Origin: Pseudomonadota bacterium
GTDB taxonomy: Bacteria; Myxococcota_A; Polyangia; Palsa-1104; JAEUJZ01
Assembly (NCBI GenBank): GCA_035328405.1
Contig: DAOLIT010000010.1
Span: forward strand, 3,529-67,528
Reading direction: 5' to 3'
Length of the DNA stretch: 64,000 bases
A model generated the notes under the pieces. It had not been told where the DNA came from, did no database searches, and was given only the letters and a program-made list of their open reading frames with translations. Both the position numbers and the translations under genes were made by a program. Shown in pieces: positions 2,640 through 62,626 of this stretch; position 1 is the first letter of the stretch; every line of letters begins with the position of its first letter.

Positions 2640-3799
2640 AGCGGGAAATGGCGCTCGGGTTGGTTGGCCTGGTGTGGACCGCATGGGGTTGCCAAAAAAA
2701 CACCGTTGAGGTAGCGCAACATCACACCTTGCCCGACGCAGCACAAACCGCAGGGCTCACGAGCGCAGCCACGCCGTGGGTGAAACTTCAGCCCAGCGCG
2801 CAAACTCCGTTGTTCGAGGGTCCGGCGCAAATCCTTCCGTCGCCGGGCTCGATCGCCAACGTGATGCCAGTGTTTTCGGCGCAGGTCACGAAACTCTTGG
2901 TGCAACCGGGACAGCGCGTGGCGGCAGGTGAGCCGGTTTGCATCGTGCTGGCCCCCGAAGTCCTGCGAGCGGCAGGCAGTCTTGTCGGCGCGGGTCTGCG
3001 GCTGCAAGCGCACCTTCAGCGAAAAGAACAGCTTTTGGCGCTCAAAAACGAGGGTTTGGCGCGGCTTTCGGATCAGCTCGAAACCGACGCACGGATCGCT
3101 GAGGCCAAAGCCACGCAACTGGAGGCCACAGCCGTGTTGCAAGCGGCGGGTGTTTCGGCGCACGAGGCGGCTACTTTTTTGCAAAACGGCGGAAAAATCA
3201 CGTTGCGCAGCCCGATTGCGGGCGTGGTGGTCAGCGTCAGCGTCAATCTGGGAAATGTGGTTTCGCCGGGGACCGCGCTTTTGAAAATCGTGGGCGCGCA
3301 GGACCATCGCATCGAGGCGCGGCTTCTGTCGAACGTGCCGGAACATGCGCGATTTGAACTGCGGCTGCCGTCGGGAAAACGAATGCCGCTGCGGCTTCTG
3401 GAACGCTCTCCGCAAGCCGACAGCCGAGATGGAACGCGGCTTTCGTGGCTGGTCGTCGAGGAAAGCGGCGCGCCCGGAAACCTGACCGGAAATACGCCAG
3501 CGACCAGCGAAGCAGAGCTCGTTCCGGGGTTGTGGGGAAAAGTGGTTGTCCTGTCCAAACCCCAACAGGGACAGGACAAATCGTATGTCGTTCCGTCGAG
3601 AGCACTGAAAATTGTGGGCACGGGAGCGCAGATTGTTCGGCGCGGCGCAAAAGACCAACCGGAACCCGTTTCGGTTCGAGTGCAGTGGAGTTCTTCCGTC
3701 GAGGCTCTGGTTTCTGCGCCGGAACTCCGCGACGACGATTGGATTGCGCAGGACGCCAGCCAGCACCAATTGAGCGGTGTGGGCGGAGTGGAACGATGA
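2636..3799 (+). CDS. RND efflux membrane fusion protein (periplasmic adaptor, HlyD/CzcB-like)
   Basis: 387 aa with N-terminal lipoprotein-like signal (WTAWGC) and biotinyl/lipoyl-like hairpin (VKLLVQPGQRVAAGEPVCIV). Stop overlaps next start (ATGA at 3796). Confidence 0.75.
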   Translation: MKREMALGLVGLVWTAWGCQKNTVEVAQHHTLPDAAQTAGLTSAATPWVKLQPSAQTPLFEGPAQILPSPGSIANVMPVFSAQVTKLLVQPGQRVAAGEPVCIVLAPEVLRAAGSLVGAGLRLQAHLQRKEQLLALKNEGLARLSDQLETDARIAEAKATQLEATAVLQAAGVSAHEAATFLQNGGKITLRSPIAGVVVSVSVNLGNVVSPGTALLKIVGAQDHRIEARLLSNVPEHARFELRLPSGKRMPLRLLERSPQADSRDGTRLSWLVVEESGAPGNLTGNTPATSEAELVPGLWGKVVVLSKPQQGQDKSYVVPSRALKIVGTGAQIVRRGAKDQPEPVSVRVQWSSSVEALVSAPELRDDDWIAQDASQHQLSGVGGVER

Positions 3800-6700
3800 G
3801 CGGGGCCCATTCAGACGAAGAAACGAACTCGTGGGTGGCGAAATGGGCGAAAGGTTCCGTGCTCCACCGTCGAACTGCTGTGCTGGTTTGGCTGGCAGTG
3901 ATGGCGGTTTTTGCGGTTCTTTCGACGAGGCTCAAATTCGACGCGCTGCCGGACATCACCAACAACCAAGTGTTGGTTTTGACACGCGCGCCGGGTTTTT
4001 CCCCCGAGGAAGTCGAACGGTTGGTGACGCGCCCGATTGAGGTTGCGCTCGGTGGCCTGCCGGGACTCGTCGAGCAGCGCAGCATTTCGCGGTTCGGAAT
4101 CTCGTCGGTGACGGCAGTGTTCGAGGACGAGGTACCGGTGCTCGATGCCCGTCAGCTCATCACCGAGCGGCTCGATACAGCCGACTTGCCCTCGCAAACC
4201 GAGAAACCTCAACTTGGACCGATTACGGGTGGCTTGGGCGAGATTTTCCATGTCGCTGTCACCTCTTCCCAACGGACACCTAGAGAACTTCTAGAACTTT
4301 CCACGCTCCAAATCGCACCACGTTTGCGTTCGGTTCCTGGTGTGGTCGAAGTCAACACCTGGGGAGGGCAAGAACGAACCATGGACGTGCGGGTCGATCC
4401 GATGCGCCTGGCGACGAGAAGACTCGATCTTCGACGGGTGCGAAACACGTTGGAAAACAGCATCGGCGGCGTCGCGGGGACTGCACTGCCGGCTGGATCG
4501 GGGCAAGCCCTGTTGCGAGGGACTTTCTATCCGCAAATTCCGGCAGAGATTGGTGGTTTGTTGCTCGAAGCCGGTTCGGATGCTCCGTCTGAGGACGGCG
4601 TGCCGCCCGTGCGCGTCGGCGATGTGGCCGAGATTTTGGAAGGAGAACGTCCCAGGCTCGGGGCAGCGTCGAGAAATGGCCAAGGGGAAACGGTCTACCT
4701 GATGGCGCAAATGCTCCGTGGGGAAAACGCGCTCCAAGTGATGTCTGGCCTGACCGAGCGCATGGAGCACATCAAAGAACAACTGCCGAAAGACGTTCGT
4801 GTCGAGCTGATTTATGACCGCAGTCATTTGGTGATGAACACGCTGCGCACCGTCGGAAAAAACCTGCTCGAGGGCGCGCTGTTGGTGGTCAGTTTGTTGC
4901 TCTTGCTCCTCGGGAGTTTTCGCGCGGCGCTTCTGACGGCTCTGGCGATTCCGCTCTCGATGCTGGGAGCGGCGATCGGCATGGTCGCGTTTGGCATTCC
5001 GGGCAATCTGATGAGCCTCGGCGCGCTTGATTTCGGCCTTCTCGTCGATGGTTCCGTCGTGATGGTCGAGCATCTGTTTCATCGCCTGGACGCGACCCAG
5101 GAATACGACGCGACAAGCTGGCAACGCGCCGTCGGACAAGCGTGCCAGGAAGTGGCCAAACCGGTGCTGTTTTCCGTCACGGTCATTTTGCTTGTGTATG
5201 TGCCAGTGCTTTCGTTGGATGGCGTCGAGGGAAAGATGTTTCGACCGATGGCGGCGACGGTGGTGTTTGCGCTGTTTACGTCGCTGCTCCTGGCGTTGTC
5301 GTTCATTCCCGCCAGCGCAAGTTTCCTGCTTTCTCGACGAGAGGTCGGCAAAGTTCAGGCTGCGCCGCCGTTCTTGTTTCGATGGTTTTTGCGTGCATAT
5401 CGACCGGCGTTGTTTTGGTCGGTGCGTCATCCGCTGTGGGTCGGGGGAGCTTCTGCGTTGCTGCTCGTCGTCGGGTTGGGTCTGTTTTTGCGTGCAGGCA
5501 GTGAATTTGTCCCCCAGCTCGACGAGGGCGACATGGTGATTCAGACCACGCGCTCGTCGGACATTTCGCTCCCTCAAGCGGTTTCGGAAGCTGGAAAATT
5601 GGAACGGGTGTTGCTGTCGGAGATTCCAGAAGTCACCCAAGTGGTTTCGCGCGTCGGAAGTCCGTCGGTGGCGACCGACATCATGGGCCTTGAACAAGCC
5701 GATGTGTTCGTCGCCCTCAAACCGCGCGAATCGTGGCGGAAAGGACTGTCGCGAGAAGCCCTGATCGAGGAAATCGACAAACTTCTTGCACGTCGAGCAC
5801 CCGGCGGCGATCCGTCGTTTACGCAACCCATTCAAATGCGTTTCAACGAAATACTCGCTGGTGCGGTCAGCGACGTGGCGGTGAGCGTTTTCGGAGAAGA
5901 TCTGCGCGAACTCCGACGGCTGGCCGAAGCGGTTGAAACCGAGTGCCGACAGGAAAAAGGGGCCGAGGATGTCAAAATTTTGGCTCCGCCTGAAATTGCC
6001 CTGTTGGAAGTGCGCCCCCGTCCGATGGACGCTGCTTTGGCGAGCCTGTCCGTCGGCGAAGTCCTCGAGGCCGTGCAAGCGTTGCGCACGGGCATACAGG
6101 TAGGTGTCACATTCGACGGGCCGCTAAAAATACCGGTCCAGTTGCGCATGCTCTCCGAGTCACCGACGGCGTTCTCGCTTCCGACGGTGCCGCTACCCAT
6201 CTCAACAGGCGGAGTCGTCCCGCTTTCTCGCGTGGCTGACATCGAGCTGCGCAAAGCGCCCGCGCTTGTGTTGCGACACAACGGGGAACGTCGGCTGCTC
6301 GTCGGTTTCAATGTGCGTGGAAAAGACTTGGGTTCTCTCGTCGCAAACCTGCAAACAAGAGTCGCAAAAACCGTGAAACTGCCGCCGGGCTATCGCATCG
6401 AATGGGGCGGTCAGTACGAGACGCTCGCGGCGGCAAAAAAGCGTTTGCGCGTCGTGATTCCGGTCGTTTTGCTCGGAATTTCCGCATTGCTCATCCTGTT
6501 GTTCCGTCGCACACGCCCGGCACTATTGCTTTTGGCACACGTTCCGTTTGCCTGCGTCGGAGGCATGGTCGCGCTGGCCATTCGCGGAATGCCAGTGTCC
6601 ATTTCGGCGGCGATTGGTTTTATTGCTCTATCGGGGATTGCGGTTTTGAACGGCGTGGTGCTGGTGGCGACGCTGCTCGATTTGGAAAAACACGGCGCAG

Positions 6701-41400: not shown

Positions 41401-41482
41401 GCCCGAGTGGCGAAATTGGTAAACGCAGAGGACTTAAAATCCTTAGCCGCATGGCGTGTGGGTTCGATTCCCGCCTCGGGCA
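41401..41482 (+). tRNA. tRNA-Leu (anticodon TAA)
   Basis: Cloverleaf: acceptor GCCCGAG/CTCGGGC, D-arm, anticodon loop cTTAAaa, long variable arm, T-arm GTGGG-TTCGATT-CCCGC, discriminator A. Confidence 0.85.
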
Positions 41483-44643: not shown

Positions 44644-46560
44644 TCATGGCGCGGTCAGCAGATCGAGCAGGGTTCGGATTTCCAAAGGAATGGCCCGATG
44701 GAGGTCCGGCAAGAGGTTTCGCTCTGCTTGCTCGACGATCTCGACCAGCGAACCCCGCAACGCAAAAGACCCCTTGGGCAACGTGTCGCGCAGCGCCTGC
44801 AGAAGAACGCGGGACCGGTCTTTTCCATGCTGAAAGACCGCCGGGTTTTCACGCACATCGGCGCGGGCCCGCTGGTTGGCGGTGTTTTCATCGAGCATCT
44901 TGCCGTCTTTGTCCGGGCGGCGATGCACCGCACGCCGACCATCGACCGCCTGATCTTCCAGGGCTCGGTCTTCGTCGGCCTTTTTCACCGCTGCGTCAAG
45001 CTGTGCCACAAGGTCCTCAGGCGCAAGGCGGATGTGCGGCGCAAGCCAAGCACTCAAACAGCGTGAGTCCAAAAACAGGCTCTCGATGCTGTGTCTAGAC
45101 CACGTAGCCTCCACCACCACGAGGTGGTTGGCCAGATTCGTGCTGGTGGGCGCTTTGGGTTCGCGGCCAAAGTCGCGATCTTTGACGAGGGCCGCTCTCA
45201 CCGGGACCCCGCTCTGCAAGGTGGGGAAGAGCGCAGGCGTGAGCAGTGCCTTCAACACGCCTTGGGCGCTCGCGTTGCCCACACCGTTGAGCGGAACGGG
45301 CGTGTAGTCCAAGAAGCGCTGCCAGCGATCCTGTTGATCTGCGTACAAGAGGCGAGCACAGGCTCGCAGAAACTTGTAGTCCGACGGCCCCTCGTAAAAA
45401 AGAACGCGACGAGACGCTAGAAAGTTCAAGGCCGTAAACGGCGTCAAATCACAGAAGGACCCAAGGGCTGCCACGATGTCAGAATCGTTGCGCAGCACAG
45501 CCACCGAAGGCGTGGCCTTTCGATCGACGTGAAGCAGCACAGCATCCCGGCGCTGTCCCAGGCGATTTGTCACCTCGACCGAGTGGGTGGCCAACACAAG
45601 CTGAACGCCAAACGTATGAAGCGCCAACTGGGTAAGCGCCTCGGCGGCCTCGGCCTGCAAACGCGGATGCAGATGCGCCTCTGGTTCATCGAGCAGAAAC
45701 AGGACGGGGCGGTTTTCGCTCTCTACTCGCTGCACCTGAAGGAGCTTCATCGCCGAAAACAGCGCAACAAGGTTGACCAGGCCCGAGCCCGCAGAAGACA
45801 GTTCCAGCTCTCCGTTGTCATCTTGAAAGTAGACGTGCAGATCGGCAGTGTTCTCGGCGTCGGCCTGCGCCGTTCTCCGCGTCAGGCGCGTCCCGAGCGG
45901 CGCAAGCAGCGTGCGGTTCAACTGCTCGAGGTCGGCGGCATCCAGTCGAGCAACCAAGTTCCGCACGATGTGGCTTTGATCGCCGCTGCCCAGCAACCGA
46001 GTCAACAGGGGACGCGACCGATGCTCCTCTGTCCGAATCACCCCATAGAACGCAGGGACAAACACAGACAGCGGATAGAGGCGCCCGAGGTCCATCTGCA
46101 GACGCGCTTTCACGTCCGATTTTCGAGCCATTCCCGATACCGATGCCAACGCCTGACGAGACCGTACCGCTACACTGCGCAAAAGCTGCCGGTTGCGTCC
46201 GTAGTGAAAGCTCACCCACAGTTCCTGGAGCGCATCTGTCTCATCGAAGGCCAGGGTGATGTCCAGGCTTGTGCCGTCCCCCACTTGCGCATGGTGAAAC
46301 AGTTGGGTCCAGTCGGACAAACCCACAAGCGCGCTCGGATCGGACACCACTTCCTTGCGAGAAGTCCAAATCCATCCGTCCGGGACTCGCTCTGGGAGGA
46401 ACGCGGCGGTCTGCGCCAGCGACTCACAAGCCAAACGGATCGCTTGCAGCACCGTGGATTTGCCCGAGCTGTTCTTGCCAATCAGCACGGTCACGTCGGA
46501 GAGATCCGCTTGAAACGCTGCAAAGCCTCGGTAGTTGGTGAGCTCGACCTTGCGTAACAT
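44644..46560 (-). CDS. OLD-family ATP-dependent endonuclease (ABC-type ATPase + TOPRIM), class-1 (solo)
   Basis: N-terminal 'LRKVELTNYRGFAAFQADLSDVTVLIGKNSSGKST' (Walker A), 'LFLLDEPEAHLHPRLQ' (Walker B/D-loop). C-terminal TOPRIM-like 'VLFYEGPSDYKFL' and 'VKDRDF' (DxD). Confidence 0.7.
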   Translation of the reverse strand: MLRKVELTNYRGFAAFQADLSDVTVLIGKNSSGKSTVLQAIRLACESLAQTAAFLPERVPDGWIWTSRKEVVSDPSALVGLSDWTQLFHHAQVGDGTSLDITLAFDETDALQELWVSFHYGRNRQLLRSVAVRSRQALASVSGMARKSDVKARLQMDLGRLYPLSVFVPAFYGVIRTEEHRSRPLLTRLLGSGDQSHIVRNLVARLDAADLEQLNRTLLAPLGTRLTRRTAQADAENTADLHVYFQDDNGELELSSAGSGLVNLVALFSAMKLLQVQRVESENRPVLFLLDEPEAHLHPRLQAEAAEALTQLALHTFGVQLVLATHSVEVTNRLGQRRDAVLLHVDRKATPSVAVLRNDSDIVAALGSFCDLTPFTALNFLASRRVLFYEGPSDYKFLRACARLLYADQQDRWQRFLDYTPVPLNGVGNASAQGVLKALLTPALFPTLQSGVPVRAALVKDRDFGREPKAPTSTNLANHLVVVEATWSRHSIESLFLDSRCLSAWLAPHIRLAPEDLVAQLDAAVKKADEDRALEDQAVDGRRAVHRRPDKDGKMLDENTANQRARADVRENPAVFQHGKDRSRVLLQALRDTLPKGSFALRGSLVEIVEQAERNLLPDLHRAIPLEIRTLLDLLTAP

Positions 46561-49186: not shown

Positions 49187-49828
49187 TCAGCGCAACAGGC
49201 CGCAGTGCCGTCCAGTGCGGCGGGCTTCCTCGATCGCCTCCATGGGCGGCACCGGGCGAATCTCCCCCATCAAACCGTTTGGCAGAAGCTCGATGTCCAC
49301 AAACGAGGGATAGAAGTGACGGATCATGCGAACCATGTGCCGGTCTCCCTCGGAATAGGTCCGCACGAACGAAAAATTGCGGAACGGCCCGTCGTGCAGA
49401 TCCAGCAATTCCTGAAATGTGCCGTAATCGAGAAAACTCGCGATGTCCTTGGCGAGGCTGGGAAAGAAAATGAAGTTCCGAAACCGCGATTCATAGACCG
49501 CTTCTATTGGGGGAACAGCCTTGATCTCGCCCATGTATCCATTGGGCAAAATCTCGATGTCGGCGCAGGATTCTCCATACAGTTCGCTGACTCGCATCCA
49601 GTTTTTCCCATCGCGACAAAACCGTCGTTCAACCGCGAAATCACTTGATGGCCCATCGCTAAGAGAAAAAACTTCATCGAACGTGCCCAGGTCTTTCCAT
49701 TCCACGATCCGCTGAAGATCCCTGGGTCGCAACGTAAACGGCACAAGGTCTTCGGGCGGCGGGAGCCACCCAAACAAATCGTCCAACGGAGGGAGCGGTT
49801 CAAAGTCAGGCATGTGCAAAACCCCCAT
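49187..49828 (-). CDS. hypothetical protein with internal tandem domain duplication; candidate immunity protein for the adjacent toxin
   Basis: Two ~90-aa repeats (DGKNWMRVSELYGESCADIEILPNGYMGEIKAVPPIEAVYE / DRHMVRMIRHFYPSFVDIELLPNGLMGEIRPVPPMEAIEE). No signal peptide. Lies directly 3' of the toxin gene. Confidence 0.5.
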   Translation of the reverse strand: MGVLHMPDFEPLPPLDDLFGWLPPPEDLVPFTLRPRDLQRIVEWKDLGTFDEVFSLSDGPSSDFAVERRFCRDGKNWMRVSELYGESCADIEILPNGYMGEIKAVPPIEAVYESRFRNFIFFPSLAKDIASFLDYGTFQELLDLHDGPFRNFSFVRTYSEGDRHMVRMIRHFYPSFVDIELLPNGLMGEIRPVPPMEAIEEARRTGRHCGLLR

Positions 49829-49931: not shown

Positions 49932-52900
49932 TCAGGGCTCGCGGTCGGGGTCCTCCATCGTGGACTGCACCGTTGGAACCCCATCGTCATCCAGAGAGGA
50001 AACCGTCCCCCCGCGCCCCAGCGCAGTTCGGCCCGAAAACGTCAGCTCCTGGTTCATTTGGAAGAACGGATCGTTGTGTTCGTCGCGCAGTCCTTGCGAG
50101 GCCGTCATCCCCATGCCCGTCGAAGGATCGTTGGATTCAAAGCGGCCCCGCAGTTGAATGTGTTGGAAATTTTTGCGTTCCTTGTTCCACCGGAGAAGCT
50201 GCGGAAGTTTGGCTTCCAACTCTGCCGCTTTGGCATCGGGAAACGTCTGCCGCAGGTTCGTAAGTTGCGCATTTCGTTCCGCGAGCGCGGCTTGCTGCAA
50301 GTCGTAGCCCATCGGAACTTGCAGTTTCTGAATCATCTCCGGCGTGAGCGTCGCTTCGAGCACACGCAAATTCTCCGCGCCGTCGGGATTGACGGTCGCC
50401 AGGCCACTAGACTCCCGGTTCACGTAGGGGTTTTTGGTCGGGTCGGCGGTCACGTAATCCAGGCCCAGGTTCTTGATGCGCTGGTCGGCGTTCATCCCCT
50501 CGGTGTTCTGGAGCAGACCCACATCCCCACTGACCGTCCAATTCGGGGTTCCCTCTTTGTAGAACTTGTCCGCCGTATCGCCGCCGATGACCTTGGCGAT
50601 TTTTTGCCCCGCTTGCACGTCCTCGAACAGCGCAATGTTCATTTTGAGCAGCAGTTTGAGTTCCTGGTCGGTCAGCTTGCCCCGCGTTTGTCCAAGCGCA
50701 TCGACTTCCGAGTGCGCCCCGATCGTCCGATGTTCCGTCGCGGGTTTGCCAGCGTTCGTCTGCGCTTCCAACTCGCGCGCCACGCTGTCGGGCATCGTCG
50801 CCTGCTGGTTCTTTTTGATGGTGCCCTTGAGCACTTCGATCTCGTCGGGCGTAAAGCCTTTGGACCGCAGCCGTTCTTCGACCGTGCTGGCTTTGGGCAT
50901 CGTCTTTGGATCGACGCCCAGCTCGGTCGCGAAACCCTGCAACGTGCGCGCTTCATCGACACCGAGCACAGAACCATCCGCTTTCTTCTGGCCTTCCGCC
51001 TTTTTGTGTTCCGCCTCAGCCGCCAGCTCGCGCAACGCCTGTTCGTCGCCCTTTTTCCGCGCCGCGATTTCCTGTTCCCACTGGTTGACCATTTCGTGGT
51101 CTTCAGTGGTCTTCGCCTGAGCGCGCAGATCTTCGAGAGCTTGCTCGTCTGCCGACAGCTTCCGCTTCGGACGCCCCTTGTCATCCAGGGTGCTCTCTTC
51201 ACCCACCCCAGCCTTGGCGTTCTTTTTGACTTTCGCGTCCGCTTCGGTGTCCTTGGCCTTTTCGCCCGATTCCGGTCCCACCGGCTTGGCCTGGTCCGTT
51301 TTGCCCTTCTCTTGCGCAGAAGCGTCCTGGCTCTTTTCGTGCGGATCGGCGGCTTTCCCGTCTGCCACATCTTGGGGTTTTACCGGGTGGTCGTCCTGTT
51401 TGGCTTCCTCGTGCCGCGTTTTTTCCTGGTCCGCCTGTTGCTTGCTTTCTTTCACCGCTTCTTCGGGCGCTTTTTCGTTTTTCCCCTTCTGTTTTTCGGC
51501 GGCCACCTCCTTGTGCACCTCGCTCACGTCGTCCTTGTCGCCCTTCTTGCTGTCGCCGTGCGCACCTTCCTCTGACCCCGCATCGCCCCCCTGGTTTTGC
51601 TCGGCCTTCGGTTTGTCTGGCCCCTGATCTGGGGTTTGAGCCTGCGCTTTTTTCGCTTCCTTCAGCTCCGCACGGGTCTCCGCGATGCTGTCGAGCGACC
51701 CCGAAAGTCCTGCACCACCCACCGACGTCACCCATTTCTTCGCGATGTCTTCGGGACGGCCAGAAAACATGCTGGGATCGAGCACATTGGCGGCGGTCTG
51801 GCCCGCTGCGCTGCTGCTTCCGCCCTTGATGGCCGAGAACATGTACGGATTCATCCCGTTTGGACCGTTTCCAAACGCTTTTCCCACGCCTGCGCTCGTT
51901 CCACCGTTCACAAAACTCGTCAGCATGCTCGAACCGACTTGGCTACCCATTCCTTTCACGAAGTCGCCAAAGTCCCCCTGGTAGTTTTGCTCGTTCATCA
52001 GTCCGCCCACCAAGCTGTTGATTCCGTTTTGCCCCGCGCTCGACAACCCCCCTTTCAACATCGTTTGCAGCATCGTCGCCGTCTTCGGGTCCGCAATCCC
52101 CACAAGCTTGTTGAGCTGTCCTTCCAGGCCGGGCAGTTTGAACGCACCTGCCGTCAGCGCGCTCGCCAGCGTCGTCACCGCATCCACCCCGATGTCTTCG
52201 AGCGCATATCCGCCCTCCAGCATCACCCCTTTGACCGCCATGCTGCTCGCTCCGCCTAGGAGCGCGGACAGCGCCGCCACCACCGCGGGAGACGCCGAGC
52301 CCGCCGTCGCAATCGAAACCGCTGCCCCCACCACCACCGCTGCGCCCGTCGCCACTGCGTTGGTCGCCGAATCCTTCGCCGCCTGGTAGTTCTGCACGTC
52401 CTGACCTTGGTATTCCGTCAGCACGCCCAACCGATCTTTGGCCGCCCCAGACCACGACCCGTCTTTTTGGGCTTGCTGGGCCAAGTTGTTGATTCGCTGG
52501 TGTTGGTAATCGAGCACTTGCCCAGAATCCGAAAACAGATCCGTCACACCGCGCGAGAACCAGTTGCTGCCGCTGCCGCGATCAAATTCGTAGGCCTCGT
52601 TCGCCCGCGACACCATTTCCTCTGGCGTTTCGGGTTTGCCTTTCATCATTTGGCCGATTTCAAAGCCGTCGCGCCCGCTCACTTCGCCTTTGAGCAACGC
52701 ATCCAAATCTTGTCCGTATTTCTCTTTGTACGTTTTCCGCAGCTCATCGATTTCTGTTTTGGACTTGCCTTCCAGCGTCTTGCGAATCAGTTCCTCATTC
52801 GTGCCAATCCCGTTCGTTGCATATTTCAGCGCAAACTCATCGCTGATTTTTCCGTCTTTTTTCAGTTGATTCGCTTTTTCCAAATCGAGCCCGGACAGCT

Positions 52901-54131
52901 CACTTTTCAGCATCTGGTCGAAATTCTGTCCGCCCGCTTTGTTGCCATATTGCTGGTTGTATTTGGCAATCAGTTGTTCGCGTTCTTTTGGCGATTTGCC
53001 CTCCATCGACTTGAAGATCGCCTCTTCGTCCGTGCCCCAAAAGTCTTCGGACGCTACTTTGACCCGAGCCGCTTCTGCCCCTGCCTTGTCGCCCTTGAGC
53101 AAATTCGACGCCACATCTTTTTCGGCCCCAGAAAACTCGCGCCCAAGCGCCTTGGTCAACGGTTCGCCCGTCTTTTTCTGGTACGCCGCCGCCAGCGCCT
53201 TGCGTTCTTTTTCGTCTTTGCACGATTCGATGGCGTCATACACCCCGTTTTCATCCGTCCCCAAACCGAGGTTGAGAAAACCGCCATTCATCGCTTCATC
53301 CAGCTTCACTGCTGCCGCTTTTGCTTTGTCCCCTTCAAGCAACGCTTTCGACAGTGCCAAATCGTTCCCGGACATTTCGCTTTTGAGCATCTTGTCCAGG
53401 CTCTGGCCCGTCTTCTTTTCATACGCCGCCACGATCTGTTTGCGCTGCGCTGGGTCTGTCACATTTTCCAGAACCGATTGAATTTTCTTCTCATCGGTTC
53501 CCATTCCAAACATTCCGCCATGGGCCGCATTGTCGAGCGCCGCAACCGCACTCTTGACCGGATCTCCCGACAGAGCCGCCTGCGCTTCTTCCAGGTCTTT
53601 GCCCCCCAGCTCCCCTTTGATGTCGTTGTCCAGGCTGCGGCCAAAGTGGTCCTGATACGCCGCTTTGATCGCTTTGACCTCCGCAGGAGACTTCCCTCGC
53701 AGCGCATTGTGAATGGCGTCTTCGTCGGTGCCCCAACCATCCATCGCCTTGAAAAGCTGGTTGGCCGAATCCCGAACCGCTTTCGGATCGATCGGTTTCT
53801 CCTCAACTGCCGGCGCCGCCTTTTTCGCGTCGAGCTTCGGATCGAGCTTCGGATCGAGCTTCGGATCGAGCTTCGGGTCAACTTGTGGACCACGCTTGTC
53901 CATCGGCTTGTCTGGCAACGCAGCGGGCAACTTCCCTGGCAACACCGGGCCAATCGGAGAAACGGGGTCGCCAGGTCCTCCAGGCCCCTTGGACGGCGGC
54001 GGCATTTTGTTGCCACCTCCGAACAAACTGGTCACTTTGGACCAAATCCCCTGCTCTCCGCCCTTCTGAGCGTCGGGCTTTTGCGTGGTCGGTTTGTTCT
54101 TGTCGCCCTGAAAAAAATCGAACAACGACAT
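49932..54131 (-). CDS. large annexin-repeat polymorphic-toxin-like protein
   Basis: ATG start (MSLFDFFQG; the tracked ORF begins at an upstream TTG, 54143). 5-6 annexin repeats with the endonexin motif (K-G-x-G-T-[38]-D/E; e.g. KAMDGWGTDEDAIHNALRGKSPAEVKAIKAAYQDHFGRSLDNDIKGELGG). Then a Gly/Ala-rich hydrophobic block, a K/E/D-rich linker and a ~400-aa C-terminal region. No signal peptide. Confidence 0.75.
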   Translation of the reverse strand: MSLFDFFQGDKNKPTTQKPDAQKGGEQGIWSKVTSLFGGGNKMPPPSKGPGGPGDPVSPIGPVLPGKLPAALPDKPMDKRGPQVDPKLDPKLDPKLDPKLDAKKAAPAVEEKPIDPKAVRDSANQLFKAMDGWGTDEDAIHNALRGKSPAEVKAIKAAYQDHFGRSLDNDIKGELGGKDLEEAQAALSGDPVKSAVAALDNAAHGGMFGMGTDEKKIQSVLENVTDPAQRKQIVAAYEKKTGQSLDKMLKSEMSGNDLALSKALLEGDKAKAAAVKLDEAMNGGFLNLGLGTDENGVYDAIESCKDEKERKALAAAYQKKTGEPLTKALGREFSGAEKDVASNLLKGDKAGAEAARVKVASEDFWGTDEEAIFKSMEGKSPKEREQLIAKYNQQYGNKAGGQNFDQMLKSELSGLDLEKANQLKKDGKISDEFALKYATNGIGTNEELIRKTLEGKSKTEIDELRKTYKEKYGQDLDALLKGEVSGRDGFEIGQMMKGKPETPEEMVSRANEAYEFDRGSGSNWFSRGVTDLFSDSGQVLDYQHQRINNLAQQAQKDGSWSGAAKDRLGVLTEYQGQDVQNYQAAKDSATNAVATGAAVVVGAAVSIATAGSASPAVVAALSALLGGASSMAVKGVMLEGGYALEDIGVDAVTTLASALTAGAFKLPGLEGQLNKLVGIADPKTATMLQTMLKGGLSSAGQNGINSLVGGLMNEQNYQGDFGDFVKGMGSQVGSSMLTSFVNGGTSAGVGKAFGNGPNGMNPYMFSAIKGGSSSAAGQTAANVLDPSMFSGRPEDIAKKWVTSVGGAGLSGSLDSIAETRAELKEAKKAQAQTPDQGPDKPKAEQNQGGDAGSEEGAHGDSKKGDKDDVSEVHKEVAAEKQKGKNEKAPEEAVKESKQQADQEKTRHEEAKQDDHPVKPQDVADGKAADPHEKSQDASAQEKGKTDQAKPVGPESGEKAKDTEADAKVKKNAKAGVGEESTLDDKGRPKRKLSADEQALEDLRAQAKTTEDHEMVNQWEQEIAARKKGDEQALRELAAEAEHKKAEGQKKADGSVLGVDEARTLQGFATELGVDPKTMPKASTVEERLRSKGFTPDEIEVLKGTIKKNQQATMPDSVARELEAQTNAGKPATEHRTIGAHSEVDALGQTRGKLTDQELKLLLKMNIALFEDVQAGQKIAKVIGGDTADKFYKEGTPNWTVSGDVGLLQNTEGMNADQRIKNLGLDYVTADPTKNPYVNRESSGLATVNPDGAENLRVLEATLTPEMIQKLQVPMGYDLQQAALAERNAQLTNLRQTFPDAKAAELEAKLPQLLRWNKERKNFQHIQLRGRFESNDPSTGMGMTASQGLRDEHNDPFFQMNQELTFSGRTALGRGGTVSSLDDDGVPTVQSTMEDPDREP

Positions 54132-54147
54132 CTTGCCCCCCAAAACG

Positions 54148-54205
54148 TTGTGCGTCGCGCCGTTGAGATTATCGTCTGGTTTCGACGCAAGTGTCTGTTT
54201 CGAGG
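54148..54205. promoter_or_regulatory. ~57-nt palindrome-containing element, copy A (immediately 5' of the toxin gene)
   Basis: ttgtgcgtcgcgccgttgagattatcgtctggtttcgacgcaagtgtctgtttc, with internal 7-bp inverted repeat TGCGTCG...CGACGCA. Near-identical to copy B at 58774-58830. Confidence 0.6.
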
Positions 54206-54410
54206 GAAGGTCGTGTTTGGGGAACTGGGTCTACGGAAGACCGTTTACCTACTGCGCATCGAGCCAGGACAGATCGCCCTCGAACAGGCACAGGTTCCTG
54301 TTGCCCGAGGTCTGGGACTCCCTTGGCCGAAGTCAGGGACTCCCTTGCAGGTTCCACTCCCGCCGTCTCCGCCCGAACTACCCCGGATAGGCATTCTCTC
54401 CATCCTGCCT

Positions 54411-54752
54411 TCAGTACCGGTGTTTCGTCGTCTCAATCTCCTCGACCTCGCGGGCACCCGCGACCGGGAGAATCTCGGTCAGCACCCTGTGCCGGGCGTT
54501 CGCCACGCGCTCGTCGTGCTCCATGTCCTCGGATTCGACCTTCAGGACCGCGTCGAGTATACCCTTGTAGTGATCGTAGAATCGTAGTCTTGCCTTGTCG
54601 CCGATGTCCGCACTGAGCCAGTCGTCCTCGTAGCGCCGCTCGGTGCTGTAATGGACCCAGGGGCGCTTCGTCGCCGGTTCGAGCAATTTCTTCAATCGAC
54701 CGAAATAGTCGTTGTCGGTCTTGAACCGCCAGGTGATGTAGGTCGTCTTCAT
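54411..54752 (-). CDS. small acidic hypothetical protein (candidate immunity protein for orphan cassette 2)
   Basis: 113 aa, begins 25 nt after the stop of the orphan cassette ORF, same strand. No signal peptide. Confidence 0.45.
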   Translation of the reverse strand: MKTTYITWRFKTDNDYFGRLKKLLEPATKRPWVHYSTERRYEDDWLSADIGDKARLRFYDHYKGILDAVLKVESEDMEHDERVANARHRVLTEILPVAGAREVEEIETTKHRY

Positions 54753-54776
54753 TCGTGCTCTCGCAATCTAGGAGTA

Positions 54777-56405
54777 CTAGTCCCTGTCGGGTCCAGTGTA
54801 CAGGGTCGGGGGCGTCGTGAACGGGTCGTTTCCAATGTTCAGCTTGAAGTCGAACAGCCCGTCCTTGTTTTTCGGATCTGCTAGCGTGGCCGGGTCATAG
54901 GCGCGCTGGTCCCATTCCTTGCCGTACCGGTAGAGATCGCCGCCCAGGTCGGTATTGGAGAACCCCGGCTTGCCGTCGGGTGAGCCGGTCTTGAAGATAC
55001 CGTAGTCGGCGTTGATCGGGTTGTCGATTTGCATCGCTCCGACCTTGGCCTGGTCGCTGAACACGGCGAGGTCGGTGTCGGATTCGGGCGTCCACGCGCC
55101 GCGCTGGAACCAATCCTCGTCGTTGCGTCCGCTACCATAGTGTTGCAGGAGCTTCATCGGGTTGTTCTTCCAGCCGGTGGTGCCTGAGCCGACCTGGACG
55201 ACCTGCATGTCGGTGATGCCATTACGGTCGGCGATGGCGGCGAGGCCCCCCTGGAAGTCGCGCATCTGCTCGGTGGCTCCGGCGAGATCGTTGACGTCGC
55301 CGCGTGCCCCCTTATAGGTCAGCGGCACCCGCTCGCCGTCCGCGTTTCCCTGGACCGCGAGCTTCAAGCGTTCGGCGGAGACATCGTTCGGGTGCTCGGC
55401 CTCGCCGCTTCGGACGCGCTCGTAGTTCGACTCGTTGAGCTTGCGCAAATGGTTGTGGGCGGCCTGGATGATCTCGTCGGGCGTCGAGCCCGATGTCAAG
55501 CCAGCGGCCTTTCCCGCCTCGCTGTTTACGAAGGCATCCATGCCATTGAACTCAAGCTGGTGCTTGTCGTGATCCTCCAGACTTATCTTCCCAGACGCGA
55601 AGAGCTCGGCTTCGCGCTCGCGGCTGAGGCGACCTTCCTTCGGCAGTACGTCGAGCTTGTCCATCGCCCACTTCACGGCCTTTTCAACCTCATTGGCGGA
55701 AGGCGGCAACTTCTTGGGCCCCTCCGCGTTGGAGACGTCCGCCGCAGTCAAGACGGCAGTCGTCTTGTCGTCATGAGTCTCGTCACCCAGGGTCGGCTTT
55801 GAGGTGTCCTCGGTCTTGGGTTTTACCGGGTGGTCGTCCTGTTTGGCTTCCTCGTGCCGCGTTTTTTCCTGGTCCGCCTGTTGCTTGCTTTCTTTCACCG
55901 CTTCTTCGGGCGCTTTTTCGTTTTTCCCCTTCTGTTTTTCGGCGGCCACCTCCTTGTGCACCTCGCTCACGTCGTCCTTGTCGCCCTTCTTGCTGTCGCC
56001 GTGCGCACCTTCCTCTGACCCCGCATCGCCCCCCTGGTTTTGCTCGGCCTTCGGTTTGTCTGGCCCCTGATCTGGGGTTTGAGCCTGCGCTTTTTTCGCT
56101 TCCTTCAGCTCCGCACGGGTCTCCGCGATGCTGTCGAGCGACCCCGAAAGTCCTGCACCACCCACCGACGTCACCCATTTCTTCGCGATGTCTTCGGGAC
56201 GGCCAGAAAACATGCTGGGATCGAGCACATTGGCGGCGGTCTGGCCCGCTGCGCTGCTGCTTCCGCCCTTGATGGCCGAGAACATGTACGGATTCATCCC
56301 GTTTGGACCGTTTCCAAACGCTTTTCCCACGCCTGCGCTCGTTCCACCGTTCACAAAACTCGTCAGCATGCTCGAACCGCTCAGCGCGTCCCTGTCTTGA
56401 GCCAA
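54777..56405 (-). pseudogene. orphan (5'-truncated) toxin cassette: homology block plus an alternative ~350-aa C-terminal domain
   Basis: Nucleotides ~55817-56380 are essentially identical to 51377-51945 inside the toxin gene (encoding SSMLTSF...EEAKQDDHPVKP). The reading frame then diverges into an unrelated C-terminal domain. No ATG/RBS at the 5' boundary (the tracked start is a TTG); the 5' end overlaps the upstream pentapeptide gene. Confidence 0.65.
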
Positions 56406-57124
56406 GCAGGAATCGTCGTCACATCAGGTGCAGGTCCGCCGTCGAAGTCGCCAGAAAAATCAGGGCTGATGATCTCACAGGCCCCTTCCATCACCGGTTC
56501 CCCCTGAACGCCATGAAACGCGCAGCGCTCGAACACTGCATCCTTGAGCTTCAGACCGTTGAAGTTGGCGCTGCGGAAATCGCACTGAACAAAGCGGGTC
56601 CGGTACGCGCTGCCTAGGGGCGGTCCCCCGGTTCGGGTGAGCTTCGCACCGCGAAAGTTGCAGTACTCGAACAAACTGTCATCGAAGGTCATGTCGTTGA
56701 GTTTTGCGCCGGTGAAATTGCAGCGGAGCGTGCGCGCTTCTGGAAAGGAGCTCCGATCCATGATCGCAAAAGAAAAATCCGAGTCGCTGATCATTCCACC
56801 GTCGTAGTCAATCATCGACAGCGTGCTGCCCACGAAGCGACAGCCTTCGATGCGAGCGCGCTCCAAGGCGCACATGCTCAAACTGGCGCGATCAAAGACG
56901 CAGCGAATGAGCTCGATTTCTTCAAAGCCGCACTGCTGAAACTGCGAATCACTGAGATCGCAGCTCACGAAGCGAGCGCCTAGAAAAATGCAACCGGCGT
57001 CGCGTGACTTACGGAACTCATGGCCTTCGAGATCGATGCGGCCCGCGCCGGTCTTTCCCCGCTCCAGCCACTGCCGATGTTCCCGTTGAACCTCTTTGGA
57101 GAGTTCGACTTGCCAGCTCAACAT
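56381..57124 (-). CDS. pentapeptide-repeat protein (candidate immunity protein for the deaminase-fold orphan fragment)
   Basis: Consecutive A(D/N)LxF-type pentapeptides (CDLSDSQFQQCGFEEIELIRCVFDRASLSMCALERARIEGCRFVGSTLS...). Starts 16 nt after the ADA-like fragment. Confidence 0.65.
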   Translation of the reverse strand: MLSWQVELSKEVQREHRQWLERGKTGAGRIDLEGHEFRKSRDAGCIFLGARFVSCDLSDSQFQQCGFEEIELIRCVFDRASLSMCALERARIEGCRFVGSTLSMIDYDGGMISDSDFSFAIMDRSSFPEARTLRCNFTGAKLNDMTFDDSLFEYCNFRGAKLTRTGGPPLGSAYRTRFVQCDFRSANFNGLKLKDAVFERCAFHGVQGEPVMEGACEIISPDFSGDFDGGPAPDVTTIPAWLKTGTR

Positions 57125-57139
57125 TGGGCCACCCTAAGC

Positions 57140-57550
57140 TCACTCCGCGTCCTGGTCAAGGCGTGCATTGTCCCGTGCGTCTCCGTCGGAAACCTGATCG
57201 CCGTAGGCGCTTGCGGACTCTTTTAGGAGGCTCATGCCCTGCGCGATTCGCGCCCGCTGCTCGTCTGACATCTGTTGGAAGTACTTCAGTTCTCCATCCA
57301 TCTCGATGGGGAAGCGGCCCTTCATATATGCCTTGAATAGCTGCTCGGCGCGCTTGTATTCCTTGCTGAGCGTGGTGTGCATCACCGAGTGCCCGTCGGT
57401 ACTGAGGATGGTTGGCACCCCCTCAGCAATCAGGTTGATGAGGGAGTGATTCTGGAAGGTGTTGTCGCGGCCCCCTCGTACCGGCTGGAGCGAGCCGGTT
57501 TGCTCGTTGCTGGTCAGGTTGACTTCCGCGTAGATCCCAAGCTCCTTCAT
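57140..57550 (-). pseudogene. orphan fragment encoding the C-terminal third of an adenosine/AMP-deaminase-fold (metal-dependent hydrolase) domain
   Basis: 'AEVNLTSNEQTGSL' ~ ADA 'CPxSNxxT' and 'VPTILSTDGHSVMHTTLSKEY' ~ ADA 'SINTDDP...EY'. Upstream (57590-57650) is a remnant of the toxin homology block in another frame (AAEKQNGKNEKAPDD) ending in a stop. Confidence 0.55.
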
Positions 57551-57671
57551 GCGCTTGATCTGCTCGGACGTTGCGTGCGTGGCATGACCGAAGCGATCTG
57601 GCTGAGCGCAGTGTCGTCGGGCGCTTTTTCGTTTTTCCCGTTCTGTTTTTCGGCTGCGACCTCACGGTCTG

Positions 57672-57975
57672 GGTGCCAGACTTGGTGGTCTTGGATCGGG
57701 CCTTGGCGGTCTTGGACCTAGACTGGGTGGTCTTGGACCTCGACCTGGTGGTCTTGGACCTAGCCTTGGCGGTCTTGGACCTAGACTGGGTGGTCTTGGA
57801 CCTAGACTGGGTGGTCTTGGACCGGGCCTTGGTGGTGTTGGACTGAGACCTGGTGGTCTTGGACCTAGACTGGGTGGTCTTGGACCGGGCCTTGGTGGTG
57901 TTGGACTGACACCTGGTGGTCTTGGACCTAGACCTGGTGGTCTTGGACGTGGCCTTGGCGGTGTTGGACCTAGAC
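57672..57975. repeat. 21-bp tandem repeat array x14 (ggtcttggacctagactgggt-like)
   Basis: Direct read of 14 consecutive 21-nt units with point variants. Open in several frames on both strands. Confidence 0.9.
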
Positions 57976-58140
57976 TTGGTGAAGGATCGCTCCCGATTTG
58001 TGAATCTGTGTTCACTTTTTGTGATGGAAAAACCACGCAATCCTGAAAAAAAATTGCTTTTTTTCAGCGTTTCCCTTGCGGCGCGAGATTTTTGAACTAC
58101 ACATGTGGCACTCGCACTCTGCGAGAAAGGAGACCGCCTC

Positions 58141-58635
58141 ATGGCCAAAGACCCAAAAAACCCTGTTCCCGGTGACCTCGCGATCGATTGCACGCCCATT
58201 GCTGACCTGATTGTGGACCTGCCCCCAGGTGCGATGACCGGCATGCGCAAAGAACGCGCAGGCCTCGACGCGCTGCTGACGGAGATTGCAGCCAATCAAA
58301 AACTCTTCGGGGTCCGAGCGGGCATTGTTGACGAGGAGGTGAAGGCGCTCGACAAGCTGACCGAGCAACTTCAGCACACCCGCAAATACAAAGAACCGCT
58401 GCGCAAACTGCTGGAGCTTGTCACCGAGACCGAAGCTGCCCTCGACAATGAGCGGCACCAGCGCATCAGCAGCATCGCCACAAGCGTTGAACAACGCGCC
58501 AAGATTCCCGGCAACGAGGACCTCATGAGTCTGTACCGAGCGACGCGCGAATACCGCTCTGCCGTCGGGAAAAAAGCGGCCCACACGCGCACCAAACAAC
58601 AAAAGAACGACCACGACCCCAAGCCCGCCGTCTAA
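58141..58635 (+). CDS. hypothetical coiled-coil protein
   Basis: RBS AAAGGAGA, start MAKDPKNPV. Ordinary composition, unlike overlapping Arg-rich ORFs. No recognised motif. Confidence 0.45.
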   Translation: MAKDPKNPVPGDLAIDCTPIADLIVDLPPGAMTGMRKERAGLDALLTEIAANQKLFGVRAGIVDEEVKALDKLTEQLQHTRKYKEPLRKLLELVTETEAALDNERHQRISSIATSVEQRAKIPGNEDLMSLYRATREYRSAVGKKAAHTRTKQQKNDHDPKPAV

Positions 58636-58773
58636 CAAACGAACGATGTAGCCCCTCGCCGACCCCCTAGGCCCTTCCCCGGCCCTTCCTGCTGTATCCC
58701 CCCGGCTGTACGCTCCCTTTTCCAAACGGTGTCTTCCGCACAGAGTCGATGTCTTTCCCACAAAAACAAACTT

Positions 58774-58830
58774 TGTGCGTCGCGCCGTTGAGATTATGGT
58801 CTGGTTTCGACGCAAGTGTCCGTTTCAAGG
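58774..58830. promoter_or_regulatory. ~57-nt palindrome-containing element, copy B (immediately 5' of the 58843 gene)
   Basis: ttgtgcgtcgcgccgttgagattatggtctggtttcgacgcaagtgtccgtttc; 2-3 mismatches to copy A; followed by RBS CAAGGAGA and ATG. Confidence 0.6.
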
Positions 58831-58842
58831 AGACCGCAGGCC

Positions 58843-59508
58843 ATGGGCAGTCCAAACATCGCGTATTTGCTCGGGGATACCCAAGCTGGGATTTCCACCT
58901 ACTTCGAGGCGGGAACGCTCCTGGCGCTAACCCAAGGCCCCGACCCCAAGCTGACGCAGTATCTCGCCACCGAGTTGGCTCAACTCCAAAGCACCTATCC
59001 AGCGGTCAAACGCGACTTGGCGCGTGTCGCGGCGGTGCTGCGCGTGTTTGGCCACGAACCTCCAAAAGAGCCGAAAATGCCGACCGACTTTCCGGTGTGG
59101 ACCCAAGCTGTCAGCAAGCAAGTCCACGCCGCGCTCGAAGAAGATCAGCCCGCATTTGCGCACTACTTGCTCGGATATGTACTCGGGGACGCTACTGCGA
59201 CGCTGCGCGTGCTTGTGTACGTTTCGGCGCTGCTCGGCTTTGTCCCGCAGGACAAACGGCTGCGCGACATCGAACAAAACGTGCTGGAAGCCCTGGAACG
59301 CGGCAGTGAGAAGCTCTCGCACCTGGCCCTCCATCCGGCGTTTTCCGGCGGAATGAAGCAGGTCCTGTCCCAGATGGTTCCGTGTGTGAATGGCCCCGCG
59401 CTTTGGGCGAGACAATCCGACTCGCCAGCAACAAAAACCGTCGCCAACACCCTTTCTGATTTTTTGCGGTTGCGAAAGCAGCTCGACGACGAACGCGAAA
59501 AGGCCTAG
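58843..59508 (+). CDS. hypothetical protein
   Basis: RBS AAGGAGA 8 nt upstream of ATG (MGSPNIAYLLGD). 221 aa, helical, no recognised motif. Confidence 0.5.
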   Translation: MGSPNIAYLLGDTQAGISTYFEAGTLLALTQGPDPKLTQYLATELAQLQSTYPAVKRDLARVAAVLRVFGHEPPKEPKMPTDFPVWTQAVSKQVHAALEEDQPAFAHYLLGYVLGDATATLRVLVYVSALLGFVPQDKRLRDIEQNVLEALERGSEKLSHLALHPAFSGGMKQVLSQMVPCVNGPALWARQSDSPATKTVANTLSDFLRLRKQLDDEREKA

Positions 59509-61571: not shown

Positions 61572-62626
61572 ACCAGATCCGTTTGCAACTTTTTTTGGCC
61601 AAAGCAGGCATCGCGTCGCGCAGACACGCTGAGGCGCTCATCGTGCGCGGTCGCATCTCGGTGAACGGACATGTGGTCACGCAGCTTGGCACGCGCGTGG
61701 ACCCTGCGACCGATCGCATTTGGGTGGACGGAAAACTCGTCGAGCCCGAGCCGCTTGCGTATTACCTTTTGCACAAACCAAAAGGCTACGTCACAACCGC
61801 AGCGGACCCCGACGGCAGGCCCACGGTGTTCGATTTGCTCAAAAACGTGCCGGTGCGCGTGTTTCCCGTCGGACGGCTCGATTTCAACACCGAAGGCGTG
61901 TTGCTCTTGACAAATGACGGAGAACTCGCCCACGCCCTCATGCACCCAAGCCGGGGTGTGGAAAAGGTCTATCACGCCAAATTCCGCGAGGAACTCACGC
62001 AAAACATGCTCTCGCGCCTTCGTCAGGGCGTCGAGCTTCCGCCTCCGCGCATTTTGGGAAAAGACGGCGTGCCGTTGGCACAGCCTGCGCCGCTCGGGCC
62101 TCCCGAACGAAGTGCGCCCGCCGAAGTTCGGGTGCTGAAATTTACGTCCCGACACACCTGGGCCGAAATTCGGCTGCACGAGGGCAAAAACCGCCAAATT
62201 CACCGCATGGCCGAGGCGGTTGGCTCGTCGGTGCTGAAACTTACGCGGGTGCAATACGCCGGTCTTTCTGCGGAAGGTGTCGAGATGGGCGAATCTCGGC
62301 CTTTGTCGGCTGCCGAGGTGAAAAACCTGCGGCTTTTGTGTGGTTTGGCCCCTGCGCCAGGCCGACCCCTCGTGCCGCCGACGCAAAAAAAGCAAAAGAC
62401 ACCGAGTACACACAAACCGCCCGCGCGTCGCGCCGAAGCCGAACCTCCCTACGCAAAACCTGATTTTCCCCGCGCAAAACCCGATTTTCCCCGCGCAAAA
62501 CCCGATTTTCCCCGCGCAAAACCTGCTGGGCATGCCAGCACGAGGGCACCGGAACAATCGCCGCAGCCGGCCTCCCGGGGTTCGTCGAATCGGTTTCGTC
62601 CCCACGAAACGCCCCGCGTTCGCTGA
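61568..62626 (+). CDS. rluB: rRNA pseudouridine synthase (RluB/RsuA family) with repeat-containing C-terminal tail
   Basis: S4 domain '[31 protein letters not shown]'; catalytic '[21 protein letters not shown]'. Tail (KPDFPRA)x3. Confidence 0.88.
62455..62525 (+). repeat. 21-bp in-frame tandem repeat x3.5 (gcaaaacccgattttccccgc)
   Basis: Direct read within the rluB 3' region. Confidence 0.9.

Follow-up and report, generated by a model that had tools for sequence, protein, structure and literature searches.

Orphan cassettes that carry a homology handle are an accepted route of diversification in contact-dependent growth inhibition (CDI) toxins, Rhs toxins and related systems. To our knowledge, nearly all work on such orphans concerns enterobacteria, and in every case studied the orphan lay downstream of the main gene. 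Here, we describe a locus in which the orphan cassette lies upstream. It was found in a 64-kb stretch of contig DAOLIT010000010.1 (hereafter the window, by which we mean the whole stretch of DNA that was analysed), which derives from a metagenome-assembled genome (MAG). Judged from its sequence, the locus is chromosomal, falls into the annexin class of polymorphic-toxin loci and belongs to an uncultured Myxococcales-like bacterium. The same bacterium was seen again in several metagenomes, one of them labelled activated sludge. The full-length toxin gene ends in a C-terminal toxin domain, CT1, and is followed by a putative immunity gene, imm1. The orphan cassette carries a second toxin domain, CT2, with the putative immunity gene imm2, and both toxin reading frames contain a copy of the same 563-bp block (Table 1). 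Taken together, we consider it probable that this annexin-class locus combines an imported upstream cassette, a recombining block and a spare toxin that only a duplication would arm.

Comparison with described systems

The arrangement resembles the rhs-CT/rhsI and cdiA-CT/cdiI orphans, in that a promoter-less, 5'-truncated toxin tip with its immunity gene lies beside a full-length gene; CDI and Rhs orphans are listed in PMC3150448. The Rhs orphan of Salmonella Typhimurium LT2 recombines through a stretch of 522 bp with 95% identity, and a prior duplication has been postulated to keep the immunity gene (PMC3967940). The homologous stretch of our locus measures 563 bp at 98-100% identity. However, Rhs and CDI orphans are located downstream, where a deletion fuses them to the main gene, whereas here the orphan is upstream and a deletion would remove the delivery half of the toxin. 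Moreover, the duplication that was postulated in Salmonella to retain immunity would here itself be the arming step. The scaffold also differs, since it consists of annexin repeats and a Gly-rich region rather than Rhs/YD or filamentous haemagglutinin repeats, and has no VENN or PxxxxDPxGL demarcation motif. A sharp VENN-like motif at the 5' edge of the block was considered and dropped, because conservation declines gradually after aa ~735. Overall, the locus follows the known polymorphic-toxin principle with an unusual gene order, and it departs from the classic displaced-orphan arrangement in two features, the downstream position and the origin by displacement.

Passages in Zhang et al. (2012; PMC3482391) and Kodavali et al. 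(2014; PMC3894181) describe annexin domains in polymorphic toxins of the Photorhabdus virulence cassette (PVC)/extracellular contractile injection system (eCIS) class, and these passages are silent on orphan cassettes that carry a homology block. Like those toxins, the window protein has annexin repeats N-terminal to a variable toxin domain, a source among delta-proteobacteria/Myxococcota, and predicted transmembrane or Gly-rich segments. Unlike those toxins, it has five annexin repeats, it lacks the DUF4157 metallopeptidase-like domain, and no eCIS genes accompany it in the 64 kb. Neither secretion-apparatus nor contractile-injection genes were present among the open reading frames (ORFs) scanned in the window, and the full-length protein had no match to a signal peptide domain, PAAR or DUF4157 (PF13699), although relatives of the toxin do carry PF13699. 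An eCIS locus may lie elsewhere in the genome.

The duplicated block

The two copies of the block were identical without interruption over 563 bp (100% in an ungapped self-comparison, at an offset of 4443), and a repeat of this length cannot have arisen by chance. An initial annotation, made by a model from the sequence alone, had placed a near-identical duplication at 51377-51945 and 55817-56380. Our self-alignment bore this out, with coordinates correct to within a few bases and copies that are near-identical rather than substantially diverged. The block is the pre-toxin segment common to both toxin reading frames, that is, the end of the Gly-rich region and the charged linker.

Identity starts and stops within one base at each edge. 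On the coding strand, the 5' junction reads ...CCAAGT/CGGTTCGAGC in the main gene and ...GCGCTGAG/CGGTTCGAGC in the orphan, while the 3' junctions read ...AAACCC/CAAGATG before CT1 and ...AAACCC/AAGACCG before CT2. The abrupt edges and the peptides that had been quoted for them (SSMLTSF...HPVKP, followed by QDVADG or KTEDTS) were likewise correct, on the minus strand. A third, decayed copy had been reported at 57590-57650. This copy exists and has three mismatches, but it is merely 47 nt long and runs from 57663 to 57617. It is out of frame with the fragment of an adenosine deaminase (ADA)-like toxin that comes after it.

The locus was recovered from ~25 further contigs, representing ~20 runs or assemblies and several assemblers. 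The junction between the pentapeptide-repeat gene stop and the block recurs in 11 of these contigs (L016, L033, L037-L044 and others), and the junction between the block and CT2, together with the layout imm2-tail-promoter-N-terminus, recurs in 10. In L016, a near-clonal independent assembly, the two block copies differ at 11 of the 563 positions (98.0% identity). The perfect identity in the window is possibly inflated: a gene conversion may have occurred recently, or the assembler may have homogenised the copies. Near-identity of at least 98% is robust.

Probable exchange between the block copies

Block haplotypes were classified as resident-type (M, as in the sister strain L001) or orphan-type (O). 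The 88-kb contig L016 has the layout of the window and differs from it by 19 substitutions over 19.5 kb. Nine of the 19 lie within 232 bp of the main-gene block (binomial P ~4e-13). At each of the nine sites, the main block of the window agrees with the orphan copy, and eight of the substitutions are synonymous. In L016, the main copy is of type M and the orphan copy of type O. In the window both copies are of type O, as is the main copy of L018, while the main copy of L017 has M at four 5' sites and O at five 3' sites.

Two further contigs, L033 (assembled with MEGAHIT) and L040 (a scaffold from another project), carry the order pentapeptide gene, block, CT1 and imm1, with a fused ORF of 664 aa. 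This is the structure predicted for a crossover deletion. Their blocks are mosaic, either patchy (O/M/O/M) or with a single switch. These patterns strongly suggest, but do not prove, that the two block copies recombine, by repeated conversion from the orphan to the main copy and by occasional crossover. The proposal that the block is a recombination handle is supported in so far as the copies seem to exchange sequence, with the assembly caveats given below. The tip-swap outcome that had been attached to it is not.

Gene order and the predicted outcome of recombination

All genes of the toxin locus lie on the minus strand in the ORF list. Read in the coding direction, the older part of the locus comes first: D4 copy 2 (D4 is a 63-nt direct repeat), the wreck of an ADA-like toxin, and a pentapeptide-repeat gene. 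These are followed by the block-CT2-imm2 cassette, D4 copy 1, the full-length toxin gene with CT1, and imm1. The locus can be written as A-R1-[CT2-imm2]-P-N-R2-[CT1-imm1], in which R1 and R2 are the block copies, P is the promoter and N is the N-terminal part of the toxin.

The orphan (56380-54777) lies 5' of the main gene (54131-49932) and not downstream of it. Because of this order, an intrachromosomal crossover between R1 and R2 would delete the delivery half of the toxin rather than CT1 and imm1. CT2, imm2, the promoter and toxin codons 1-733 would be lost, leaving A-R-CT1-imm1 and a disarmed cell. It had been expected that such a crossover would exchange CT1 and imm1 for CT2 and imm2. With the orphan upstream, and with contigs L033 and L040 joining the pentapeptide gene, block and CT1, this expectation was not borne out. 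A second homology handle was sought downstream of imm1 and imm2, and none was found; for this reason, a double crossover or conversion of the whole cassette is not possible.

An unequal sister-chromatid exchange, in which R2 recombines with R1, would produce A-R1-CT2-imm2-P-N-R-CT2-imm2-P-N-R2-CT1-imm1. This tandem duplication would express a full-length CT2 toxin ahead of the unchanged CT1 gene, no immunity gene would be lost, and the change would be reversible. We infer that duplication is the only route by which CT2 would be armed, and that the cassette has been selected for immunity to CT2-armed kin and as a silent spare warhead. Immunity to CT2-bearing kin is predicted to be its most secure function. 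The older ADA-like cassette illustrates what usually becomes of such cassettes, with loss of the toxin part and retention of the adjoining gene.

Origin of the cassette

The sister strain represented by L001 shares 96-99% nucleotide identity with the window, with which it also has the toxin wreck, the pentapeptide gene and the CT1 toxin in common. It is without block-CT2-imm2, and has instead 478 bp that form the 5' part of a gene which we call orfX. In a second sister strain without the orphan (L027), the main gene also carries CT1 and orfX occupies the site. In L001, orfX (3396-3857) ends with ...NLCLFEGDLSWLDAQ and its stop codon, and homology between the window and L001 resumes at 54297. 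The junctions of the cassette are non-homologous: one reads TGAG/CGGTTCG, and at the other there is a microhomology of CAG. The cassette is strain-specific and replaced 478 bp of orfX.

The orphan block differs from the resident type by nine substitutions, eight of which fall on third codon positions and are synonymous, while the ninth replaces Q847 by K. This pattern, with eight of nine sites synonymous, indicates that the allele evolved in an expressed gene of a strain that had diverged by ~1.6%. The cassette is thus a recently imported, 5'-truncated foreign allele and not a tip displaced from the resident gene. The initial annotation had spoken of the classic displaced-tip mechanism. Since sister strains with CT1 have orfX at this site, and a 45-nt piece of orfX is left in the window, CT2 was imported and not displaced.

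The cassette ends in a 113-nt tail, in which each unit of a 22-nt tandem repeat holds the palindrome GGGACTCCC. This tail had no match elsewhere in the window or in any of the loci, and orfX likewise had no further match.

The CT2 and imm2 module

The cassette has the make-up of an orphan cassette, namely a 5'-truncated toxin without a delivery region, an immunity gene, and a homologous stretch shared with the full-length gene. CT2 and imm2 are a genuine mobile and conserved pair of predicted toxin and immunity genes that is used on other delivery scaffolds. A search of 5.8 billion proteins yielded only four relatives of CT2: the orphan itself; P0122, which has a helical N-terminus and is encoded beside an FtsK/SpoIIIE gene (84% identity); a stand-alone protein of 309 aa; and the type VI-type prePAAR-PAAR protein P0124. 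Two more diverged copies were present in metagenome contigs. Homologues of imm2 of 106-113 aa follow CT2 in all five contexts, with 73-21% identity and 10 invariant residues.

Nucleotide homology to the unrelated FtsK-linked CT2 locus L003 extends from 55814 to 54404. It starts 4 nt past the block and ends 7 nt past the imm2 stop. Because these limits coincide with those of the cassette genes, the 3' edge of the block is also the edge of a mobile CT2-imm2 module. In L003 (303-4318), the helical N-terminus of P0122 has a W-x-D/WXG-like motif, and its gene directly follows the FtsK/SpoIIIE ATPase gene and two small genes. This context suggests type VII-like export of the same toxin domain. In another unrelated metagenome contig, a long stretch rich in pentapeptide repeats (L014:6100-8940) lies just upstream of a CT2-like gene, which recalls the pentapeptide gene of the window.

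A nucleotidyltransferase assignment of CT2, suggested by the motif GSGTTGW...SDTDLAVF (Pfam E 0.22), was not adopted because it depends on one motif. AlphaFold2 modelling on an alignment of 4 sequences gave a mean confidence (pLDDT) of 55, and the Foldseek search of the PDB with this model returned noise only. A CT2 profile search of PDB sequences matched solely the PAAR part of a homologue.

The full-length toxin, CT1 and imm1

The full-length protein has a low-complexity N-terminus with DPKL repeats, five annexin repeats (aa ~127-520; Pfam Annexin, E 4.9e-45, in 5 stretches of the 1399-aa toxin) and a Gly/Ala-rich hydrophobic region (~590-830), followed by the charged linker and CT1. The 12-nt DPKL repeat in its N-terminal region (53830-53876) varies in copy number between strains, which results in proteins of 1387, 1399 and 1411 aa. 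We found 129 homologues, mainly from Myxococcales-like MAGs. Their annexin and mid regions are 78-88% identical, whereas their C-termini differ and include CT1, a second tip in P0003-P0009, PLD, DUF4157/eCIS_core, YwqJ deaminase, Fic, RelA_SpoT, 'polymorphic toxin type 4' and others. Conservation in the family fades after ...GMGSQVG. Three traits agree with a polymorphic toxin system as defined by Zhang et al. (2012): a conserved N-terminal scaffold with unrelated alternative C-termini among the homologues, the same tips (CT1 and CT2) on different scaffolds, and a downstream immunity gene, with a predicted protective role, that co-varies with the toxin domain.

Homologues of CT1, obtained with an exhaustive HMMER search, lie at the C-terminus, or close to it, in proteins of 373-2392 aa that otherwise differ from each other, one of which combines eCIS_core (DUF4157) with annexin. 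A word-based homology search for CT1 was empty, probably because the low-complexity linker swamped the candidates. The structure model of CT1 is confident and has no close solved relative. CT1 may be distantly ADP-ribosyltransferase-like, and NAD-using interbacterial toxins with the ADP-ribosyltransferase fold (Tne2, TreTu, ArtA/pertussis S1, SPN) were counted among the closest known systems.

CT1 is followed by imm1 in the window and in L001 and, at 47% identity, by a homologue of imm1 in L002 and L005-L007; domain searches with imm1 gave no family match. In L002, two further genes of similar size (202 and 220 aa) come after the imm1 homologue. The imm1 proteins of the window and L001 (8242-8883) are 90% identical, with ~61 nucleotide differences in 400 bp, while the adjacent CT1 is 100% identical, with no differences in ~1.2 kb. 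This mosaic of imm1 and CT1 suggests a separate recombination history of imm1.

Remnant of an older toxin

The fragment at 57140-57604 is the truncated remnant of an older toxin tip. Apart from the TIGR01430 match (Table 1), it matches Pfam A_deaminase at positions 214-295 of 330 (E 6e-5). The fragment covers only model positions ~209-295 of the complete ~320-residue ADA domain, and the N-terminal HxH metal site was not found. The neighbouring pentapeptide-repeat gene is presumed, from its position alone, to be the immunity gene of the decayed ADA-like toxin.

The two copies of D4 are 94% identical. The only two sigma-70-like matches in 49-59 kb, CAGACA-18-GATAAT at 54197-54168 and CGGACA-18-CATAAT at 58822-58793, have the same position in both D4 copies and lie on the minus strand, in the direction of the toxin. 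Possibly, D4 copy 2 could drive read-through of the remnant array, antisense to the 164-aa gene. In L002 and L006, the toxin start and a homologue of the 221-aa gene lie ~85 bp apart in divergent orientation. Because this layout puts the toxin start beside the 221-aa gene homologue, D4 copy 2 marks the ancestral position of the toxin. The ADA-like wreck is the leftover of a gene that was once present at that position.

Between the 164-aa gene and the ADA-like remnant lies a 21-nt tandem array (57602-58002; 57678-57981 according to Tandem Repeats Finder, TRF) with a 63-nt super-period and ~14-19 copies, whose copy number is not the same in the window, in L016 and in L001. Its minus strand encodes repeats of the PRPPSLG type, and the ORF concerned (58036-57662) stops precisely at the 47-nt linker scrap. 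The array may have been the low-complexity N-terminus of the decayed toxin, which is plausible, but the match found was only 11 nt (E 0.8).

Weighing of the explanations

Several points weigh against the reading of an imported cassette that duplication would arm. No full-length protein that joins the N-terminus, the block and CT2 is on record, and the arming step has never been seen. Neither a duplicated block nor an orphan was present in the family loci L002, L006, L008, L009 and L011; the family as a whole therefore does not share the block duplication. The population evidence consists entirely of short-read assemblies, in which merging of bubbles or bulges can homogenise 98%-identical repeats or make them mosaic, and in which repeat collapse can yield loop-skipping contigs of the type A-R-C. 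The final 110 nt of L033 (5924-6032) match no other locus and resemble part of an unrelated gene; either the assembly is chimeric, or another rearrangement took place within the TonB-receptor-like gene. Contig L017 closes on itself with a 123-nt overlap, which is ambiguous. It was rejected as proof of a duplication recombinant, as only 4 nt after its block are of CT2 type and its k-mers are common to the orphan junction.

The strongest competing explanation is that the cassette is a passive relic or immunity islet, kept for imm2 alone, in which the block is a hitch-hiking leftover without a role in changing tips and owes its identity to a late arrival or to incidental conversion. We consider this unlikely, yet by no means negligible. 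It would fit the upstream position, which makes the easy crossover destructive, and the fate of the older ADA-like cassette, of which the toxin part likewise decayed while the adjoining gene was kept intact. The two absences mentioned first, of an armed CT2 protein and of a handle in the other family loci examined, are also in its favour. In contrast, the 346-codon frame of CT2 is open and CT2-imm2 showed no substitution in 10 assemblies, although this may reflect mere youth. Furthermore, the block copies seem to exchange sequence, which implies that duplication recombinants form with some frequency.

Since assemblers merge bubbles at 98% sequence identity, the duplication, or merely its perfect identity, might be an artefact of strain variants that collapsed during metagenome assembly. 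The window does come from a MAG, most related contigs break at the block edges, and the block copies of L016 differ at 11 sites. However, both copies were resolved in the same order in the independent 88-kb contig L016, and the pentapeptide stop/block and tail/orfX junctions share no k-mer with the main gene and recur across samples and assemblers, which makes an artefact very improbable.

We think it equally improbable that the orphan is expressed by itself, as a 530-aa protein whose translation begins at position 56369 (ATG) through coupling with the pentapeptide gene, and forms a toxin-antitoxin (TA)-like pair with imm2. The orphan had been described as lacking both a start codon and a ribosome-binding site. 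An in-frame ATG is present at 56369-56367, only 12 nt past the upstream stop, and GenBank annotates a 530-aa coding sequence from it (HMU38179.1). The second half of the description stands, as no obvious ribosome-binding site or promoter was evident. Read-through transcription could start from D4 copy 2, and TA-like behaviour of the Salmonella Rhs orphan is described in a passage of PMC7043789. Yet the resulting protein would be without annexin repeats and most of the Gly-rich delivery region.

Finally, the classic displaced tip, in which a deletion through the block replaces CT1 and imm1 by CT2 and imm2, is almost certainly wrong: a cassette that has no promoter and begins with a near-identical block shared with the main gene does resemble the CDI and Rhs orphans (PMC3150448; PMC3967940), but the orphan lies 5' of the main gene with the deletion product seen in L033 and L040, no second homology follows imm1 or imm2, and the sister strains point to import of CT2.

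Surroundings of the locus

On one side the locus is flanked by housekeeping genes (scpA, scpB and a pseudouridine synthase gene), and on the other side by a TonB-receptor-like gene, an AAA_15 ATPase gene and a Mur ligase gene. The 3' end of the pseudouridine synthase gene holds a 21-nt coding repeat (62429-62533), of which the window and L016 have different copy numbers. The ATPase gene (44644-46560) encodes a 638-aa protein of the AAA_15/AAA_21 type (OLD/AbiEii-like), adjoins the TonB-receptor-like gene just downstream of the toxin locus, and may be a defence gene. An Rfam scan of 48-60 kb gave no match. In a scan for a tRNA that could serve as integration site, the sole tRNA of the window was a tRNA-Leu at 41401, 8 kb away.

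Table 1. Positions in the window of the features of the toxin locus and its immediate neighbours.
Feature	Position	Strand	Remarks
imm1	49187-49828	-	213 aa, internally duplicated; putative immunity gene for CT1
Full-length toxin gene	49932-54131	-	1399 aa from the ATG at 54131
CT1	49932-51374	-	Variable linker and ~350-aa C-terminal toxin domain
Block, main-gene copy	51375-51937	-	aa 734-919; end of Gly-rich region and most of charged linker
D4 copy 1	54143-54205	-	Promoter/5' untranslated region element directly upstream of the toxin start codon
orfX remnant	54249-54297	-	Last ~45 nt and stop codon; orfX intact in cassette-less sister strains
Cassette tail	54298-54410	-	113 nt, came with the cassette; 22-nt x2 tandem repeat at 54301-54348 (TRF)
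imm2	54411-54752	-	113 aa; putative immunity gene for CT2
CT2 orphan toxin module	54777-55817	-	346 aa, intact frame
Block, orphan copy	55818-56380	-	Starts 1 nt past the TGA of the pentapeptide gene
Pentapeptide-repeat gene	56381-57124	-	247 aa; Pfam Pentapeptide_4, 2.4e-20
ADA-fold C-terminal third	57140-57604	-	TIGR01430 positions 209-291 of 323, E 1.5e-7
Third block remnant	57617-57663	-	44/47 identical to 51509-51463, E 4e-15; linker part of block
164-aa gene	58141-58635	+	Opposite to the toxin genes; unrelated; between D4 copy 2 and 21-nt array
D4 copy 2	58768-58830	-	Beside divergent 221-aa gene
221-aa gene	58843-59508	+	Divergent from D4 copy 2

Implications

Our results carry the orphan-cassette principle to the poorly known annexin-class toxins of Myxococcota. 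In this natural example, apparent exchange within the handle accounts for most of the differences among near-clonal assemblies. The locus also adds two uncharacterised predicted toxin domains, CT1 and CT2, each with a conserved putative immunity partner.

A bolder version of the proposed mechanism, which we put forward as doubtful, is a reversible 'add-a-warhead' switch, in which duplication adds CT2 while the reciprocal product, with the pentapeptide gene, block and CT1 joined, is disarmed yet immune. If this were true, disarmed cells would coexist in natural populations with singly and doubly armed ones. The switch would then have left its footprints in the mosaic haplotypes, in contig L017, which closes on itself, and in L033 and L040, the contigs of the deletion type. 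In the reading that we favour, of an imported spare that duplication would arm, it is the gene order that would set the outcome of recombination: the easy crossover would disarm the cell, and duplication alone would arm it.

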